Assembly: GCA_964291405.2 (NCBI GenBank)
Contig: OZ219926.1
Span: forward strand, 2,656,001 to 2,720,000
Length of the DNA: 64,000 nt
Origin: Thermodesulfobacteriota bacterium
Lineage (GTDB): Bacteria; Desulfobacterota; Binatia; Bin18
Reading direction: 5' to 3'
The first letter of the stretch is position 1. Each line of letters starts with the position of its first letter. The translations under genes were made by a program, and so were the position numbers. Under the pieces are notes generated by a model. It had not been told where the DNA came from. It was given only the letters and a program-made list of their open reading frames with translations, and made no database searches. Shown one piece after another: positions 72 to 5,513 of this stretch.

Positions 72-884
72 ATGGCTGTGGTCTCTGCCTTTCTCGTCCC
101 CGGCTCGCCCCTGCCCTACGTCAAACGCGATAATCCGCCCTGGGGCAAAATTGCGACGGGCCTGGAACGGGCCGGCGCGGCGCTCGTCCAGTCCAAACCG
201 GATGTGATCCTACTCTATTCAACGCAGTGGATTGCCGTCCTGGACCAACTGTGGCAGACCCGTCCGCGGGTGAGCGGCCTGCACGTTGACGAAAATTGGC
301 ACGAGTACGGCGAACTGCCCTACCGCCTGAAGATCGATACCCGGCTGGCCAAGGCCTGCGTGGCCGCAACCGGCACAATCGGGGTCAAGTCCAAGGCGGT
401 CAATTACGACGGGTTTCCGATTGATACGGGAACGATTGTCGCCGCGAACTTCCTGAACCCGGGCGGCAAAATTCCGATGGTGTTGGCCTCGAACAATCTT
501 TACCACGATTTTGCGCTGACCGAAAAACTCGGACGTTTGGCGGCACGCTTGGCCGGCAAACAGAAAAAACGGGTAGCCGTGGTGGGCGTAGGAAATTTTT
601 CCGGTGCGTTCTTTCGGCACGAGATCGATATTGCCAAAGATAAAATCGTCGCTCCGAAATACGACCGCTGGAATAAAAAGATACTGGCTCTGCTGCAAGC
701 CGGTGACGGGAACGGGTTGTCTGCGGCCCTGCCCGAGTTTGCTACAAAAGGGCAGGCCGATATGGGCTTTAAGCACGGCGCGTGGGTATTAGGCGCCCTG
801 GGCGGGAAGTTCACCGGCGCACAGGTGCACGCCTATGGCCCGCTCTATGGCAGCGGCGGCGCGGTGGTGGAGTTCGACTTGTGA
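72..884 (+). CDS. amnA: 2-aminophenol 1,6-dioxygenase alpha subunit-like (LigB-fold extradiol dioxygenase, non-catalytic subunit)
   Basis: VVSAFLVPGSPLP, YSTQW.AVLDQ, HVDENW, YDGFPIDTGT, DMGFKH and YGP.YGSG closely resemble AmnA/CnbCa; SD GGAGG upstream. Confidence 0.8.
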   Translation: MAVVSAFLVPGSPLPYVKRDNPPWGKIATGLERAGAALVQSKPDVILLYSTQWIAVLDQLWQTRPRVSGLHVDENWHEYGELPYRLKIDTRLAKACVAATGTIGVKSKAVNYDGFPIDTGTIVAANFLNPGGKIPMVLASNNLYHDFALTEKLGRLAARLAGKQKKRVAVVGVGNFSGAFFRHEIDIAKDKIVAPKYDRWNKKILALLQAGDGNGLSAALPEFATKGQADMGFKHGAWVLGALGGKFTGAQVHAYGPLYGSGGAVVEFDL

Positions 885-907
885 AAGAGAAGAGAGATAG
901 GGATAGA

Positions 908-938
908 GTAGGTCGGATTAGCGTAGCGTAATCCAACA
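908..938 (+). repeat. REP-like palindrome (GTAGG-type)
   Basis: gtaggtcggattagcgtagcgtaatccaac; GTAG tetranucleotide then GGATTA/TAATCC stem, between convergent genes. Confidence 0.65.
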
Positions 939-964
939 TGGGCAGGCCGCTGGGCTGTCTCTCC

Positions 965-1570
965 TTAGCGTCTGCGTAATTCCAACTCGTCCAGGCGTTT
1001 GCGTACCCAGTCAATGCGATCGTTGCCCCAGAAGGGCTCGCCGCGAACAAAAAACATCGGCACGCCAAAGACTTTATCTTCTTCCGCGCGTTCTCGGATT
1101 GCGGCGAGTTCGTGCGGACCATCCTCCTCGACATAGGCCAGGAAACCAGCCTCATCCAGCCCGACCTCGGCACATAAGGCCGCCATCACCTGGCGATCTT
1201 CAATATCGAGTTCACGCTTCCAGAACCGATCAAAAACCGCATCGTGGTAGGGCCGAAAGTTCCCCTGCTGCATGGCGTATAAGCCGCCCATACAGGCTAG
1301 AGACGAATCGAATATCTTCCGTGGTCCGCGCACAAGCAGGCCGCGCGTATTGGCCCAGCGGCGGGCGTCCAGATAGGAGTAGCGCACCTTGCGCCACTCC
1401 ATTTCCGTGCGGGTCTCTACATCGCCCAGCGCCGCCGGAATATCCAACACATAGGGCAACCACTCCAACTGGATGTGATAGTCGTCTTCCAGCCGATACG
1501 CCTCGGCCTTGGCCAGGTAGGAATAGGCGCTCTTATAGTCAAAATAAAGCGGAATCGTGAACAGACCCAC
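965..1570 (-). CDS. 2-hydroxychromene-2-carboxylate isomerase / DsbA-like (kappa-GST) protein
   Basis: YFDYKSAYSYL at N-terminus, VFGVPMFFV.GEPFWGNDR at C-terminus. Confidence 0.8.
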   Translation of the reverse strand: MGLFTIPLYFDYKSAYSYLAKAEAYRLEDDYHIQLEWLPYVLDIPAALGDVETRTEMEWRKVRYSYLDARRWANTRGLLVRGPRKIFDSSLACMGGLYAMQQGNFRPYHDAVFDRFWKRELDIEDRQVMAALCAEVGLDEAGFLAYVEEDGPHELAAIRERAEEDKVFGVPMFFVRGEPFWGNDRIDWVRKRLDELELRRR

Positions 1571-1587
1571 GGCAGTCCTTGATTCCC

Positions 1588-2181
1588 TTAACAGCCCGGC
1601 TGTTCCGCTTCTGCCCGCATTTCTTCATGCGCGAACGAGAGCGGACATGGTTTGCCCACCCCGTCGAGTCCGACGGCGTAGACCAGCCGTCCATAGCCAA
1701 TAAAAATGGCCATGCGCCAGCCCAGGGCCATGATCTCGGGCTCGCTGTAATGGGTCCGCAGCTCGTCAAAGAGATCCTGGGAGACCTGTTTATGATCGCG
1801 GGCCAGGGTGTCCGCAAAGCGCAGGGCGGCTTTCTCGCGCGGCGTGAACAAATCGCTGTCCTGAAAATGGGGCAGAGCGTGGATCATTTCCTCTGTCAGA
1901 CCTTGTTGCCTCGCCGAGGCATACACGGCTGTCATTCAAAGCTGGCATTCGTTAATCTGGGCTACCTTGTGTCGAATCAGTTCGGTCAGCTTCACGCTGA
2001 TCCCGTCGGCGTCGACCATAATATGGGAATAGTAAAAATCGACGAAGTGCTTGTAGAGGTCCGGGGTATGGGCAAATATCTGTATCCATTCCGACCCGCC
2101 GAGCGCCTCGTCACTCTGCTGCATGGTTTTTTGCAGATCGGGGTCAACCTTCTCAAACGGCACCTTACTGACACGTAACAT
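1588..2181 (-). CDS. Carboxymuconolactone decarboxylase/AhpD-family selenoprotein (CxxU; Sec UGA at 1938-1936)
   Basis: ORFs 1936..2181 and 1588..1935 are in frame and joined by one TGA: ELIRHKVAQINE-C-Q-L-U-MTAV; second half has the CMD-type F.PREKAALRFAD...FDELR.HYSE.EI..L. Confidence 0.8.
1897..1931 (-). promoter_or_regulatory. Bacterial SECIS-like hairpin
   Basis: mRNA CAGCCGUGUA-UGCCUC[GGC]GAGGCA-ACAAGGUCUG; G-initiated apical loop begins 20 nt after the UGA. Confidence 0.65.
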
Positions 2182-2260
2182 CGGTCTCCCTCCTTATTGT
2201 GCAGTGGGTTTCCTTTGCCAATAAACCAATGCGGACGTATTGGGAAGAGCCGAAGAATTT

Positions 2261-4195
2261 TTAGTCCGACAGATTTTCAATAGTCAGGGGCTCAACGGCT
2301 TCAGCCAAGGGGAACCCGAAAATTCGCGAGTAAAAATACAACTCGCCGTCCAAAGCGCGTTTGATATTCTCGGCTTTGCGAAAGCCATGCTGTTCGCCCG
2401 CAAACAGGACATAGGCGACCGGCAACCCTTTCTCTCTGAGGGCCGCTACCATTAGTTCGGCTTGGTTTGGCGGGACGATCTTATCTTCCGTACCTTGGAA
2501 GACGATCAACGGACACGAAAGTTGCTGGGTAAAATGAACCGGCGAGCGCGCGACATAGACGTCCTGTCGCTCCGGGTAGGGTCCGACCAGATTGTCCGGG
2601 TAGCGGGACTCGAACTTATGGGTGTCGCGCGCCAGCGCTTCGAGGTCGCTGATCCCGTAATGACTTGCCCCGGCTCGAAACGTATTGCGAAAGGTCAATG
2701 CACACAGGGTCGTGTATCCTCCGGCGCTGCCGCCGGTAATAGTCAGTCGCTCGGCATCGACCTCGCCGCGGGCGACCAGATAGTTCGCGCCGTTAACGCA
2801 ATCGTCCACATCGACAATCCCCCATTGGCCGTTCAGGCGTTGCCGATAGGCCCGTCCATAACCAGTGCTGCCCCCGTAGTTCACGTCCAGAACGGCAAAG
2901 CCACGACTCGTCCAGTACTGAATCCGCAGATCAAGGGCCGTCTGTGCGGCCGAGGTGGGCCCGCCGTGACTTTTGACGACCAGCGGTGGACGTTCCTCTT
3001 CTGGGGCCACGTAGTCAGCGTTTGTGGGTGGATAGTACAGGCCGTACGCGGTCCGGTCGTGCTCGGTTGGAAAGGCAATAGCCTGGGGCGCTGACAGATA
3101 GTCCGGGTCCAGGTCGAGTTGGCTGGACTGACGCAGGACGCTGAGGGCGTATGTTTCCAGGTCGAGTTGGACGACTGCGGGCGGTACGCTTGGCGAGCCT
3201 GCCAGAAACACTGCTTTGCCAGATGAAGCCTGTACATCGCCCACTTCGGTATACGGCAGCGCAATGGCGTTGCATTGCCGCGTCCCCGGATCAAGGCGGG
3301 CCATATTCCAGGTCCCGTTTTCCGCGTAGGTGCAGATAATCTGGTTGGCAGAAGCAAAGGCATAGGTCGCCATACCAAACATCCACTGCGGTCGGCCAAA
3401 ATCCGCGGCCTTTTCCCACAGAGCCTCAATACTGCCGTTACGGACTCGATACAGATTCCACCAGCCGGAGCGATCCGACACAAAGTATAAGATACCGAGC
3501 GGAGACCACTCGGGCTGAAAAATGGACTCCGCGTCACCACCGGCCACCAGACCGACGTCTGCCAGGGAACCATCCGAGCGGACCGTCCCTACCCACAGCT
3601 CGGTACCATCCCAGGGCATGCGCGGATGGCCCCACGACAGCCAGGCGAGCCGGGTGCCATCCGGGTTGAGCCGGGGGTTGGAATAAAAATCACTTCCGGA
3701 GACGAGGACCGTCTCTTCCCCGCTGGCGAGATCAATACTGACCAGGCTATTCACCGCTTCCTGTCCCGTCCGCCGGTGATCTTCGCGCACGCAGATCAAA
3801 CGGCTACGCTGGGCGTCAACAATGGCGTCGGCATAACGTAGCCCATCTTCTGAGGTCAGGGGCTCGGGGTCGGCCACCCCGACCTGCCGATACAGCCGCT
3901 GGTCTGTGAAATTTGAAAAATAGAGCGCCCCGTCCCGGACGGCATACGCCCCGCCCCCATACTCATGCACGCGCGTCCGAGCATTAAAGGGTGCAGGCGT
4001 CATATCGGCTATGGTTCCGTCAGGCGTGCGTCGCACAATGACATTCCGCCCACCCTCAGTCGGCCGCTGTTCTATCCAGTACACCGTCTCTCCATCCAGC
4101 TGAACCTGGCCCAAGCCCACCGTTCCGGCCACGATCAGGTCTGATGTGATAGGCGATTTCCACGAACCGTACGGAGCCGTTTTTTTGTCAGGCAT
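2261..4195 (-). CDS. S9 family peptidase (prolyl oligopeptidase / acylaminoacyl peptidase)
   Basis: [23 protein letters not shown] nucleophile, QG.EDK.VP, GEQHGFR. Confidence 0.92.
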
Positions 4196-4349
4196 GTCTG
4201 CTCCTCAGATTGAGACCGTTGCTGTCTGGGTAACAGACCGAGAGGAACAGGAACACTCCCTGGATGCTCAGGATGGACTTGGTCTTCCCTTTACTCCCTC
4301 CCACCCGTAGCGCTATGCTTCCCGGCAACAACTCCAAGGAGGCAGGTGT

Positions 4350-5513
4350 ATGGAGACGGTCCAGCCCTCAGCGTGCGGGTTTGACGCGGCACGACTCGAC
4401 CACTTCGTGTCGTGTATGCAGAACGATATTGAGCGGGAGCAGTATGACGGGGCGGTTGTTATTGTGGCGCGGGGGGGACGGGTCGTATTGCACCGGGCGC
4501 TCGGTTTTGCCGAGCGGGCAAGCCAGCGCGTCATGCAAAAGGACGATGTCTTCTATCTCTTCTCCGTCACAAAGGCGCTGACAGCCACCGCGATTCTTGC
4601 CCGCGTTGACCGGGGCCAACTCGCCCTGACAACGCGCGTGGCCGAGATTATTCCCGAGTTTGCGAGCAAGGGAAAACAGCGGGTGACTATCGCCCAGCTC
4701 CTGGCCCATACCGCCGGCATGTCGGCCGGGTTTCCACCCGTAGCCCAGGAGATGATGGGTAATCTCGAAGCGGTTGTCGCCGCGGTCTGCCAGCAGGGGC
4801 TGGATGCACTGCCCGGAGAGATCGTCAGCTATAGCCCGATTACCGCTCATGCGGTCCTGGGTGAAGTGGTCCGCCGGATGGATGGGGGGACGCGGCCGCT
4901 ACGACAGATTTTTGCGGAGGATATCCTTACCCCGCTAGGAATGTCCAATACGGCCCTGGGTCTGCGGCCTGATCTGGCCGAGCGACGGGTTCCGGTCGTA
5001 GTGCGAGACCGGCGGGAAGGGCTCTTTCCACCGGAGGTCCTTGAAGGCTTCAACGTCATGCTTCAAGAGGACACGGAAATTCCGGGCGGTGGCGGGGTGG
5101 GGACTGCCGCCGATATCTTTCGTCTGGCGGAAATGCTGCGGCGCGGCGGAGAGCTGGACGGAGTCCGTATCCTATCTCCGGCTGTCATTCGCCTGGCCGC
5201 GACAAACCATACCGGTCTCAAGCCGAATAATCTGTGGAACTACACCAGGGAAGTCCGCAACTGGGACGAGTTTCCGGCGTCGCTCGGCCTGGGCTTTTTC
5301 GTACGCGGAACAGGTATCTTCCCCACCTATTTCGGCACGTTGGCGTCGCCAAACACGTTTGGCGCAATTGGGGCGGGGTCAACCCTGTTCTGGATCGATC
5401 CGGAGCGTGATATCAGCTTTGTGTGCCTGACCGCCGGGGCCCTGGAAGAGTCGTACAGCATGGAGCGCTTCCAACGTCTGTCCGATCTCGTTCTTAGTGC
5501 GGTTGTGGAGTAA
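4350..5513 (+). CDS. Serine hydrolase, beta-lactamase class C-like family
   Basis: FSVTK (SxxK), LLAHTAG, YS motif, FWIDPERD. Confidence 0.85.
   Translation: METVQPSACGFDAARLDHFVSCMQNDIEREQYDGAVVIVARGGRVVLHRALGFAERASQRVMQKDDVFYLFSVTKALTATAILARVDRGQLALTTRVAEIIPEFASKGKQRVTIAQLLAHTAGMSAGFPPVAQEMMGNLEAVVAAVCQQGLDALPGEIVSYSPITAHAVLGEVVRRMDGGTRPLRQIFAEDILTPLGMSNTALGLRPDLAERRVPVVVRDRREGLFPPEVLEGFNVMLQEDTEIPGGGGVGTAADIFRLAEMLRRGGELDGVRILSPAVIRLAATNHTGLKPNNLWNYTREVRNWDEFPASLGLGFFVRGTGIFPTYFGTLASPNTFGAIGAGSTLFWIDPERDISFVCLTAGALEESYSMERFQRLSDLVLSAVVE

Follow-up and report, generated by a model that had tools for sequence, protein, structure and literature searches.

The window analysed here, a 64,000-nucleotide stretch of DNA, carries on its minus strand an AhpD-like gene of the CMD family, interrupted by one in-frame TGA and located between the genes of an S9-family serine peptidase and a DsbA-like protein (Table 1). 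Under translation table 11 the gene appears as two open reading frames, 2181..1936 (81 aa) and 1935..1588 (115 aa). They lie in one frame, and the TGA at 1938..1936 is their sole separator. The minus-strand codons around it, ATT AAC GAA TGC CAG CTT TGA ATG ACA, translate as I-N-E-C-Q-L-[TGA]-M-T, and reading TGA as selenocysteine (Sec, U) yields 197 residues with a single in-frame TGA. The Pfam CMD match (PF02627) crosses the UGA, extending over residues 40-124 (E 4e-13, 49.6 bits versus a cut-off of 23). The shared frame and the match across the TGA bear out the initial annotation, in which the two fragments had been taken for one gene. A strong Shine-Dalgarno sequence stands 7 nt ahead of the ATG at 2181, and direct reading of the sequence revealed none in front of the second ATG at 1935. 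A promoter and terminator scan of window positions 800-4400 returned counts at the level of shuffled sequences. The expectation that gene callers would split such a gene also held for its relatives, since 40 of 47 database matches are fragments (108-172 aa in length, 31-58% query coverage). Near-identical loci are labelled as Candidatus Binatia MAGs.

Table 1. Features of the AhpD-like locus and its surroundings (window coordinates).
Feature	Position	Strand	Basis or remark
AhpD-like/CMD-family gene, probable selenoprotein, complete	1588..2181	minus	197 codons + TAA stop; ATG 2181..2179, TAA 1590..1588
In-frame UGA, codon 82, probably read as selenocysteine	1936..1938	minus	second position of C79-Q-L-U82
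Ribosome-binding region, AAGGAGG 7 nt 5' of ATG	2182..2200	minus	direct sequence reading
Putative SECIS core: 6-bp upper stem UGCCUC/GAGGCA and GGC loop	1901..1915	minus	fold and family covariation
Full hairpin including lower stems CAG/CUG, CC/GG, UGU/ACA	1891..1925	minus	lower part genus-specific
DsbA-fold/HCCA-isomerase-like protein, 201 aa, without CxxC; downstream neighbour	965..1570	minus	PF01323; not a conserved partner
S9-family (prolyl-oligopeptidase type) serine peptidase, 644 aa, 79 nt upstream	2261..4195	minus	Pfam

A lone in-frame stop in a single genome has the look of a fresh nonsense mutation, and the gene could in principle be a pseudogene, or its TGA an assembly error. The comparative data refute this reading, to which we assign a negligible probability. 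The TGA is retained, in an identical frame and as the single TGA, in all 20 of the orthologues, which come from different species within the genus (79-97% DNA identity). Four further paralogues of the same genome have it too, making five CxxU paralogues with the window gene, as do 20 homologues at greater distance (24-65% identity). All 24 of these fetched paralogous or distant sequences show C-x-x-TGA at the matching column. Among the genome matches listed at E <= 1e-20, from 61 related genomes, 111 of 111 carried the in-frame TGA by hand count. Purifying selection acts on both sides of the codon, with dN/dS values of 0.02-0.10 in the N-terminal and C-terminal halves alike (7 pairwise comparisons). 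Moreover, contigs from three RNA-library runs (X15, X16 and X17, in two studies) read across the site and leave the TGA intact; DNA may be present in such libraries, and the contigs speak to neither transcript ends nor expression level.

Homologues that lack the stop point to the residue that the UGA replaces. In an alignment of 31 sequences (A2), position 82 is TGA in 25 locus translations and Cys in six database proteins (P0002, P0003, P0043, P0045, P0047 and P0048), which answers affirmatively the question raised in the initial annotation of whether homologues carry Cys or UGA at this column. Two of the Cys forms are full-length homologues, P0002 (CHLC, 65% identity) and P0003 (CQLC, 63% identity). 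Only M1, C79 and position 82 are invariant in the alignment. The placement of the UGA at the second Cys of a CxxC motif, as originally proposed, is thus confirmed by the C79-Q-L-U82 motif and the Cys of the homologues.

The genome also holds the apparatus for selenocysteine insertion, the presence of which had been named as a check on the proposal. selA (598 bits), selB (393 bits), a tRNA-Sec gene (selC; 69 bits, anticodon TCA) adjoining selA, and selD (308 bits, as a Pyr_redox_2-SelD fusion) were all found above curated cut-offs on the window's own 4.9-Mb contig (C3). These genes bear on whether the UGA might instead be read through as Trp, Cys or Gly, through reassignment of the code or near-cognate suppression. 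The two frames stay open whatever residue the TGA stands for, as such a readthrough would have it. However, TGA is also a regular stop in this genome: it terminates 11 of the 38 window ORFs of at least 250 aa, and some homologues, such as paralogue p3 and G030, themselves end in it, so the code has not been reassigned. Stop-less homologues have only Cys at the position, and the dedicated tRNA-Sec (TCA) is present with selA, selB and selD. Insertion of a standard residue is accordingly considered very improbable.

Immediately 3' of the UGA, the messenger can fold into the hairpin listed in Table 1, with its GGC loop at 1907..1909 starting 20 nt past the UGA. Folding the 50-54 nt 3' of the UGA gives the hairpin drawn in the initial annotation as the structure of minimum free energy (-16.8 kcal/mol). 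Published criteria for bacterial SECIS elements, as set out in a figure legend (Fig. 2) of a recent review, are a loop of 3-9 nt, an upper stem of 4-16 bp, a G in the first two loop positions, a distance of 16-37 nt from the UGA and an MFE of at most -7.5 kcal/mol (PMC13188914). The hairpin agrees with all four bSECIS criteria, having a 3-nt loop on a 6-bp stem, a leading loop G, 20-nt spacing and an MFE of -16.8 kcal/mol. An Rfam search of window positions 1700-2100 in E-value mode returned no SECIS family, the two matches being at chance level (SAM-VI, E 3.9; GlsR14, E 2.7). Taken alone, the 71-nt stretch folds no better than its shuffles (z -0.71; 49 of 200 shuffles fold as well), and because of this the hairpin counts as evidence solely through the comparison of related sequences.

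This comparison was made on 29 Sec-form sequences. The 8-pair helix is paired in 81.9% of cases, whereas sliding the partners by 1-3 columns lowers the figure to 45.3% or less, and changes on both sides occur in all eight pairs. The covariation score is 0.587 versus 0.214 in shuffles, and none of 500 shuffles reaches 0.587, a statistic that is inflated by the relatedness of the sequences. RNAalifold independently recovers the identical 6 pairs. The register is nearly constant: 26 of the 29 sequences form at least 5 of the 6 pairs at the same place, and the remaining three form 6 of 6 pairs located 2 nt upstream. As a non-Sec control, 10 loci devoid of the TGA were fetched, of which six could be aligned across the motif, a set without P0002 and P0003, which are the nearest Cys forms; these four CxxC and two CxxE homologues show just 2-4 of the 6 pairs. 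Synonymous variation among 19 orthologues is nearly nil over gene nucleotides 244-275. The hairpin lies within coding sequence, and protein constraints could supply part of the signal; the slid-partner and Cys/Glu-form controls disfavour such an origin. Across the family, the 6-bp upper stem is kept, with 1-2 extra pairs in some sequences, and the outer stems are found in the genus only. The originally drawn structure thus stands as a SECIS-type hairpin with its loop 20 nt from the UGA, its outer stems being genus-specific and its upper 6 bp family-wide.

The hairpin and the Sec machinery would be left without explanation if the UGA were a true stop, with termination and re-initiation at UGA-AUG giving 81-aa and 115-aa chains that assemble as a split CMD protein. 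Such an arrangement is suggested by the TGAATG of the genus, in which an ATG directly follows the TGA as in translational coupling, and by the 115-aa product called in many assemblies. Outside the genus, however, the next codon is no start, yet the TGA and both halves are retained: the codon after the TGA is ATT, AAC or CAG in the paralogues of the genome and ATA, AGG, AAG or others elsewhere. In addition, the second ATG has no Shine-Dalgarno sequence, and the break would land within the CxxC active site. We regard two separate chains as highly unlikely. On these sequence comparisons, it is very probable that 1588..2181 is one gene, that its UGA is read as selenocysteine and that its product is an AhpD-like redox protein.

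The surroundings of the gene were then considered, as the initial annotation had placed it in a two-gene redox module with the gene downstream. The neighbour is indeed DsbA/HCCA-isomerase-like, as had been stated (PF01323, E 3.5e-25, 89.4 bits versus a cut-off of 25.6), and lies directly downstream; the spacer is 17 nt (1571-1587, with a GTG at 1570) instead of the 18 nt given. From the translation, its N-terminus reads FDYKSAYSY, with S-A-Y-S at the DsbA CxxC site. Since PF01323 is present and CxxC absent, it probably resembles the isomerase/kappa-GST-like branch. Conservation of this neighbour, which had been suggested as a check, did not hold. Across the 20 orthologous loci the DsbA-like gene is intact in 7, reduced to remnants in 4 and absent from 9, and no PF01323 protein was detected within about 2 kb at any of the 24 paralogous or distant loci. 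The two-gene module is therefore unsupported, and the AhpD-like gene would act as a stand-alone unit, independent of the adjoining DsbA-like gene.

No other partner emerged. Synteny with the S9 peptidase is confined to the genus, where it is seen at 19 of 20 orthologous loci, the contig of the 20th starting 123 nt before the gene. The flanking genes scanned encode the S9 peptidase, the DsbA-like protein and a LigB-type dioxygenase. By Pfam, neither peroxiredoxin nor ahpC was found among the 3-4 flanking genes or among the neighbours of the 24 homologous loci, and the 117 neighbour ORFs of these 24 loci contained no partner family that recurs beyond close relatives. The families present were enoyl-CoA hydratase, CoA-transferase III, SDR and AMP-binding proteins at 2-3 loci each, and rhodanese, OsmC and nitroreductase at one locus each. 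Because these neighbours are so heterogeneous, the genomic context yields no partner.

The initial annotation had described AhpD-like selenoproteins as a known class, and the literature agrees. CxxU members (COG2128/TIGR01926) have been published since 2005, from the Sargasso Sea (PMC1088965). Table 2 of the 2008 GOS survey lists 299 CxxU sequences of 'AhpD-like 1' from 37 GOS samples (PMC2398784), and the family is tabulated in the 2026 review from which the bSECIS criteria were taken (PMC13188914) and can be browsed in BSepDB (PMC13326102). Like the AhpD-like 1 family, the window protein has a CMD/AhpD fold, Sec at the second CxxC position, Cys-containing homologues and a SECIS hairpin directly downstream with a G in its small apical loop. 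Unlike that family, it stays under the TIGR01926 cut-off (57.5 versus 81.8, for a match spanning residues 10-171), lacks the relay His, has an additional C176 and belongs to a Binatia lineage with five paralogues per genome. Its score with NF053654, the model for YciW-related (seleno)proteins, is 69.6 versus a cut-off of 310. Its TIGR01926 score thus places the gene in a sub-branch for which there is no curated model.

The AlphaFold2 model of the protein (pLDDT 92.2) has AhpD-like proteins as its best PDB matches, namely PA0269 (2ijc/2o4d), 6k40 (TMq 0.75) and 2prr (TMq 0.73). PA0269 of Pseudomonas aeruginosa (PDB 2ijc, 2o4d, 7xw1) is the best solved relative by both sequence (E 8.9e-15 with the single sequence, 4e-27 with the profile) and fold (Foldseek E 2e-7, TMt 0.80). 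The two proteins share the Glu-x11-Cys-x-x-Cys layout on the same helix pair, whereas PA0269 is 145 aa long, lacks the N-terminal ~55 residues and has Cys for Sec and His at +4. In the account of PA0269 available in PMC3141380, the proton relay consists of Glu, Cys, Cys and His, and the protein reduces H2O2 weakly. At the corresponding positions, the window protein has E67, C79 and U82, and the fourth residue after the second Cys position is Val86, not His; across the clade this position is mostly Arg or Val. The classical AhpD mechanism is thus not fully in place, because the relay His is replaced by Val86. The extra cysteine, C176 (in 'C-P-L'), is common to 21 of the 31 aligned sequences. 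The terminal Cys197 was considered as a resolving residue and dropped, since one orthologue among the 20 (L040) has Gly there.

Mycobacterium tuberculosis AhpD, whose CxxC motif serves to reduce AhpC, offers a second comparison. It also belongs to the CMD family and has a CxxC-type centre, in which the Sec of the window protein takes the position of Cys133 (PMC6626918); its chain topology differs, according to the structural description in PMC3141380. In contrast to the mycobacterial protein, which has His132, His137 and an adjacent ahpC, none of these features is seen in the alignment or flanking genes of the window gene. As described in PMC6626918, it is the second Cys (Cys133) that cross-links with AhpC, and Cys130 is partly buried.

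From these relatives, the product would be a thiol/selenol oxidoreductase, 197 residues long and all-helical, from the AhpD-like branch of the CMD family. The comparative evidence suggests that UGA codon 82 is decoded as selenocysteine and that the in-gene hairpin, with its 6-bp upper stem and GGC loop, recruits SelB with Sec-tRNA(Sec). By family resemblance, C79 and U82 would lie where a short helix begins, after the long E67-bearing one, and would alternate between a thiol/selenol form and a selenenylsulfide, with U82 at the place that the exposed, attacking Cys133 has in M. tuberculosis AhpD. By analogy, the likeliest role is tentatively a peroxide-related one, the protein reducing either peroxide or an oxidised partner, a peroxiredoxin-type protein or another thiol.

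A role unrelated to peroxide was also weighed. Bmp8, a tetrabromopyrrole debrominase (6ohi, 6ohj), is described as a CMD homologue that removes bromine (in the portion of PMC7918430 that deals with it), and the five Binatia CxxU paralogues could be Sec-dependent reductive dehalogenases related to it, bacterial counterparts of the deiodinases in which the CxxU removes Br or I from halogenated aromatics of the sponge host. Bmp8 falls in the same length class (195 aa). The family profile matches it nearly full length (6ohi; positions 13-171, E 1.2e-24) with its CxxC aligned to the CxxU column, and Foldseek gives a TMq of 0.70 to 6ohj. The 24 public runs listed for the stretch include 10 labelled as sponge metagenomes and one labelled as a coral metagenome, and five paralogues per genome would fit a range of substrates. 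If true, this reading would make brominated host aromatics the targets, and the selenolate would render the proton-relay His unnecessary. Against it, the single sequence is far closer to PA0269-type AhpD-like proteins than to Bmp8 (E 8.9e-15 versus 2.7e-4). In Bmp8 and P0048 the second Cys is followed by His at +3 and +6, a pattern missing from the window's clade. Bmp8 is encoded in the bmp biosynthetic cluster and the window gene is not; neither a halogenase nor a bmp-like gene was found among the flanking genes or the neighbours of the 24 loci. Finally, the AhpD-like 1 CxxU proteins are abundant in the open ocean too, as the GOS counts indicate (PMC2398784), so that there is no pointer to a sponge-specific role. 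Dehalogenation is therefore regarded as unlikely, and a peroxide-related thiol/selenol oxidoreductase remains the preferred, if tentative, assignment.

Together, these results describe a UGA-decoded gene that is real but fairly ordinary, given that the AhpD-like selenoprotein family has been known since 2005, and the window gene leaves the general knowledge of selenoproteins unchanged. Among 10 of the 13 papers listed by a literature search, judged by title and abstract, none was on Binatia selenoproteins. As public gene calls split the gene and no curated model reaches its cut-off, proteomes of this lineage lack at least five redox selenoproteins for each genome. The family also constitutes a clean bacterial SECIS set, in which the register is fixed, the triloop is GGC and compensatory changes are numerous, and it could be used to train SECIS finders. 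For the biology of the organisms, the finding means that a largely uncultured, sponge-associated lineage puts selenium into a multi-copy AhpD-like family.

The AhpD-like gene was read on the minus strand from the ATG at 2181; AAGGAGG lies ahead of this codon at a spacing of 7 nt. It contains a single in-frame stop, the TGA at 1938..1936, in the context I-N-E-C-Q-L-[TGA]-M-T-A-V-Y-A-S-A-R-Q-Q-G. Under table 11 the gene is split into two ORFs of 81 and 115 aa; read through the TGA it encodes 197 residues. The match to the Pfam CMD domain (PF02627, residues 40–124, E 4e-13, 49.6 bits, cut-off 23) spans the break, which bears out the view of the initial annotation that both fragments belong to one gene. 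The spacer to the downstream DsbA/HCCA-isomerase-like gene, given there as 18 nt, is 17 nt, the sole correction to that observation.

Coordinates of the features discussed. G000:C3 is the 4.9-Mb contig of the window's own genome; L-numbers are extracted loci, other G-numbers are related genomes and X15–X17 are RNA-library contigs.
Feature	Location	Strand	Remarks
AhpD-like gene	ATG at 2181, TAA 1590..1588	-	frame read from sequence
DsbA/HCCA-isomerase-like neighbour	1570..965	-	PF01323, E 3.5e-25
LigB-type dioxygenase subunit	72-884	+	PF02900, E 6.8e-16
CxxU paralogue	G000:C3:821980-822549	-	one of L062-L065
CxxU paralogue	G000:C3:3555103-3555687	-	one of L062-L065
CxxU paralogue	G000:C3:1470204-1470770	+	one of L062-L065
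CxxU paralogue	G000:C3:1238763-1239296	+	one of L062-L065
selA	window's 4.9-Mb contig		598 bits
selB	window's 4.9-Mb contig		393 bits
tRNA-Sec	window's 4.9-Mb contig		directly adjoins selA; 69 bits, anticodon TCA
selD	G000:C3:38325-40589 (= L001:262-2526)	+	308 bits; outside the window
Tandem CxxU genes	L043 (G054:C17:72234-77418), 1989-2555 and 2583-3191	both -	27 nt apart
UGSC-family ORF	L044:578-931 (G037)	-	PF24696, E 1.3e-7
Genes flanking the G008 CxxU homologue	L049:1646-1978; L049:2609-2995	-; +	rhodanese-domain gene and second CMD-family gene
RNA-library contigs over the TGA	X15 1502-2212; X16 1871-2174; X17 1757-2076

A search of 61 related genomes yielded 20 orthologues from the same genus (88–99% protein identity), each with exactly one TGA, which lies at the identical codon in 20/20 extracted sequences and is flanked by near-identical protein on either side. 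The dN/dS values against seven orthologues (Nei-Gojobori) were 0.02–0.10 for the N-terminal half and 0.02–0.08 for the C-terminal half. As they are low on both sides of the TGA, a pseudogene is excluded. An in-frame TGA was counted by hand in all 111 matches listed with E ≤ 1e-20 in these 61 genomes, and C-x-x-TGA was present at the matching column in each of the 20 distant homologues fetched (24–65% identity). Four paralogues in the window's genome (29–55% identical) have the motifs CNLU, CALU, CFLU and CLFU. The only invariant columns of A2, the 31-sequence protein alignment of the family, are M1, C79 and position 82. The latter is Cys in two full-length database proteins, P0002 (CHLC, 65% identity) and P0003 (CQLC, 63%), and also in P0043, P0045, P0047 and P0048. 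The homologues in A2 thus show Cys or TGA at this column, and not the Trp or Arg that the initial annotation had named as evidence against its proposal. Outside the genus the codon after the TGA varies (ATT, AAC, CAG, ATA, AGG and others), ATG being found there only at the genus level, which argues against two coupled genes with a restart at this ATG. A reassigned code is countered by the use of TGA as an ordinary stop, since it terminates 11 of the 38 window ORFs of at least 250 aa. From these comparisons we consider it very probable that the window gene is a real selenoprotein gene, its UGA being read as Sec.

Minimum-free-energy folding of the sequence that follows the UGA gives the hairpin drawn in the initial annotation. 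Taken alone it is not better than shuffled sequences (z -0.71) and therefore had to be tested comparatively. From 29 Sec-form genes we aligned the 60 nt surrounding the UGA, without gaps since all are in codon register. In an 8-pair helix (columns 22–29/33–40), 81.9% of the cells are paired versus 36–45% when the partners are slid by 1–3 columns, and both sides change in every one of the eight pairs. The helix covariation score was 0.587 versus 0.214 in shuffles and was reached by none of 500 shuffles; this statistic by itself would exaggerate the support, since the aligned genes are related to each other and the hairpin is part of the coding sequence. The inner six pairs were recovered independently by RNAalifold. 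At least five of them are kept in 26 of the 29 sequences, and the remaining three form all six with the register moved 2 nt upstream. A GGC loop is present in 22/29 sequences, and compensatory changes cross amino-acid replacements, for example UCG-GCG-AGG (S-A-R) versus UUG-GCA-AAG (L-A-K). The control set of four CxxC and two CxxE homologues shows just 2–4 of the 6 pairs at the equivalent place. It is this control, together with the slid partners, that carries the SECIS argument. Within the genus, gene nt 244–275 are almost free of synonymous variation, with one variable site; overall, 125 of 198 third positions vary. Each of the four paralogues has its own covarying hairpin at an unchanged distance from the UGA. 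The window hairpin (MFE -16.8 kcal/mol) carries a 3-nt loop, with G in its first positions, on a 6-bp upper stem and keeps a spacing of 20 nt, in agreement with the four bSECIS constraints in the legend to Fig. 2 of PMC13188914; no Rfam family matched it. The SECIS-like element originally proposed therefore holds for the 6-bp upper stem, which covaries across the family, while its outer stems are genus-specific.

The genes selA, selB, selC and selD, named in the initial annotation as a check, were all found on one contig together with the window. The selD gene encodes a fusion protein of 755 aa (Pyr_redox_2 + AIRS + AIRS_C) in which SelD, as the C-terminal part, follows a pyridine-nucleotide-disulphide oxidoreductase domain; the GOS paper (PMC2398784) describes this type as Ndh-SelD fusion.

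AhpD-like selenoproteins are a known class, as already recognised in that annotation. CxxU AhpD-like proteins (COG2128, 27 sequences) were reported as new selenoproteins from the Sargasso Sea (PMC1088965), and 'AhpD-like 1' (COG2128, CxxU) ranks as the fourth most numerous family in Table 2 of PMC2398784, with 299 sequences and 902 Cys homologues. A 2026 review has an entry 'AhpD-like protein, TIGR01926, CxxU' (PMC13188914), and the family is a browsable entry in BSepDB (PMC13326102). The window protein scores 57.5 with TIGR01926 (cut-off 81.8) and 69.6 with NF053654, far under its cut-off of 310. These scores indicate that it is an unmodelled sub-branch of the known AhpD-like selenoproteins. 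Among the papers listed by our literature search, none concerned Binatia selenoproteins, as judged by title or abstract.

Loci near-identical to the window's are labelled Candidatus Binatia MAGs, and the TGA is also present in a 74%-identity locus labelled Gammaproteobacteria. The stretch is listed for 24 public runs, of which ten are labelled sponge metagenome and one coral metagenome. In three RNA-library runs from two studies, contigs extend across the TGA and do not differ at it, which is not proof of transcription. In L043, whose genome belongs to a different family within the class, two CxxU paralogues stand in tandem. About 1 kb from the CxxU gene of L044, a 117-aa ORF matches the first half of the Pfam UGSC family. 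The GOS paper (PMC2398784) lists UGSC-containing proteins among its selenoprotein families, and the ORF may thus belong to a further selenoprotein gene that is split at its UGA. Rhodanese-domain and CMD-family genes flank the G008 homologue. Four loci with Alphaproteobacteria MAG titles (L085–L088, 33–37% identity) have lost both motif Cys (..FTEDPYFS..) and share the fold of the family as non-redox members.

The DsbA-like neighbour has S-A-Y-S at the place of the DsbA CxxC, which indicates that it does not itself belong to the dithiol redox proteins. Seven of the 20 orthologous loci have the gene intact, four (L033, L034, L035, L038) have remnants and in nine it is undetectable; it seems to be decaying within the genus. 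No PF01323 gene was found within ~2 kb in any of 24 paralogous or distant loci, around which no neighbour family recurs other than among close relatives. The two-gene redox module suggested initially is thus not supported. The upstream S9 peptidase is retained in 19/20 orthologous loci, this synteny being restricted to the genus. The DsbA-like gene is convergent with a gene for a LigB-type extradiol ring-opening dioxygenase subunit, which in L036 lies ~140 nt from the selenoprotein gene end. Together the two suggest an aromatic-catabolism context for the DsbA-like neighbour rather than for the selenoprotein.

A confident AlphaFold2 model built on A2 (pLDDT 92.2, pTM 0.84) is all-helical, with C79 and U82 at the start of a short helix (80–84) preceded by a long helix (63–77) that bears the nearly invariant E67 and R70. 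The best Foldseek matches were AhpD-like PA0269 (2ijc, 2o4d, 7xw1), 6k40 (TMq 0.75), 2prr (0.73), 3c1l (0.70) and the debrominase Bmp8 (6ohj, 0.70), and PDB sequence searches returned the same set. A Sec-dependent dehalogenase of a sponge symbiont, similar to Bmp8, would fit the profile match to Bmp8 over nearly the full length and the sponge-labelled runs; PA0269 is however closer in similarity, the His pattern differs from that of Bmp8, and neither the flanking genes nor the 24 paralogous or distant loci offer a supporting context, which makes this role highly improbable. The AhpD-like active site is described as Glu, Cys, (Tyr/His), Cys, His and a water molecule, and weak H2O2 reduction is reported for PA0269 (PMC3141380). 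The window protein has the Glu (E67, 11 residues ahead of C79), the Cys and a Sec, but Val86 replaces the His at +4; most members of the clade, the Cys forms P0002 and P0003 among them, carry Arg or Val there. A third Cys near the C-terminus, Cys176 (C-P-L), is common to 21/31 aligned members, Cys forms included, and the terminal Cys197 (P-G-C) is present in 19/20 orthologues.

In M. tuberculosis AhpD, the exposed second Cys (Cys133) cross-links to AhpC (PMC6626918). Its position would correspond to the Sec of the window protein, a mapping kept conditional because the first Cys matters more in Burkholderia thailandensis (PMC6626918). The window protein would act as a stand-alone thiol/selenol oxidoreductase, cycling via a C79–U82 selenenylsulfide, and we tentatively predict a role related to peroxide or peroxiredoxin reduction.
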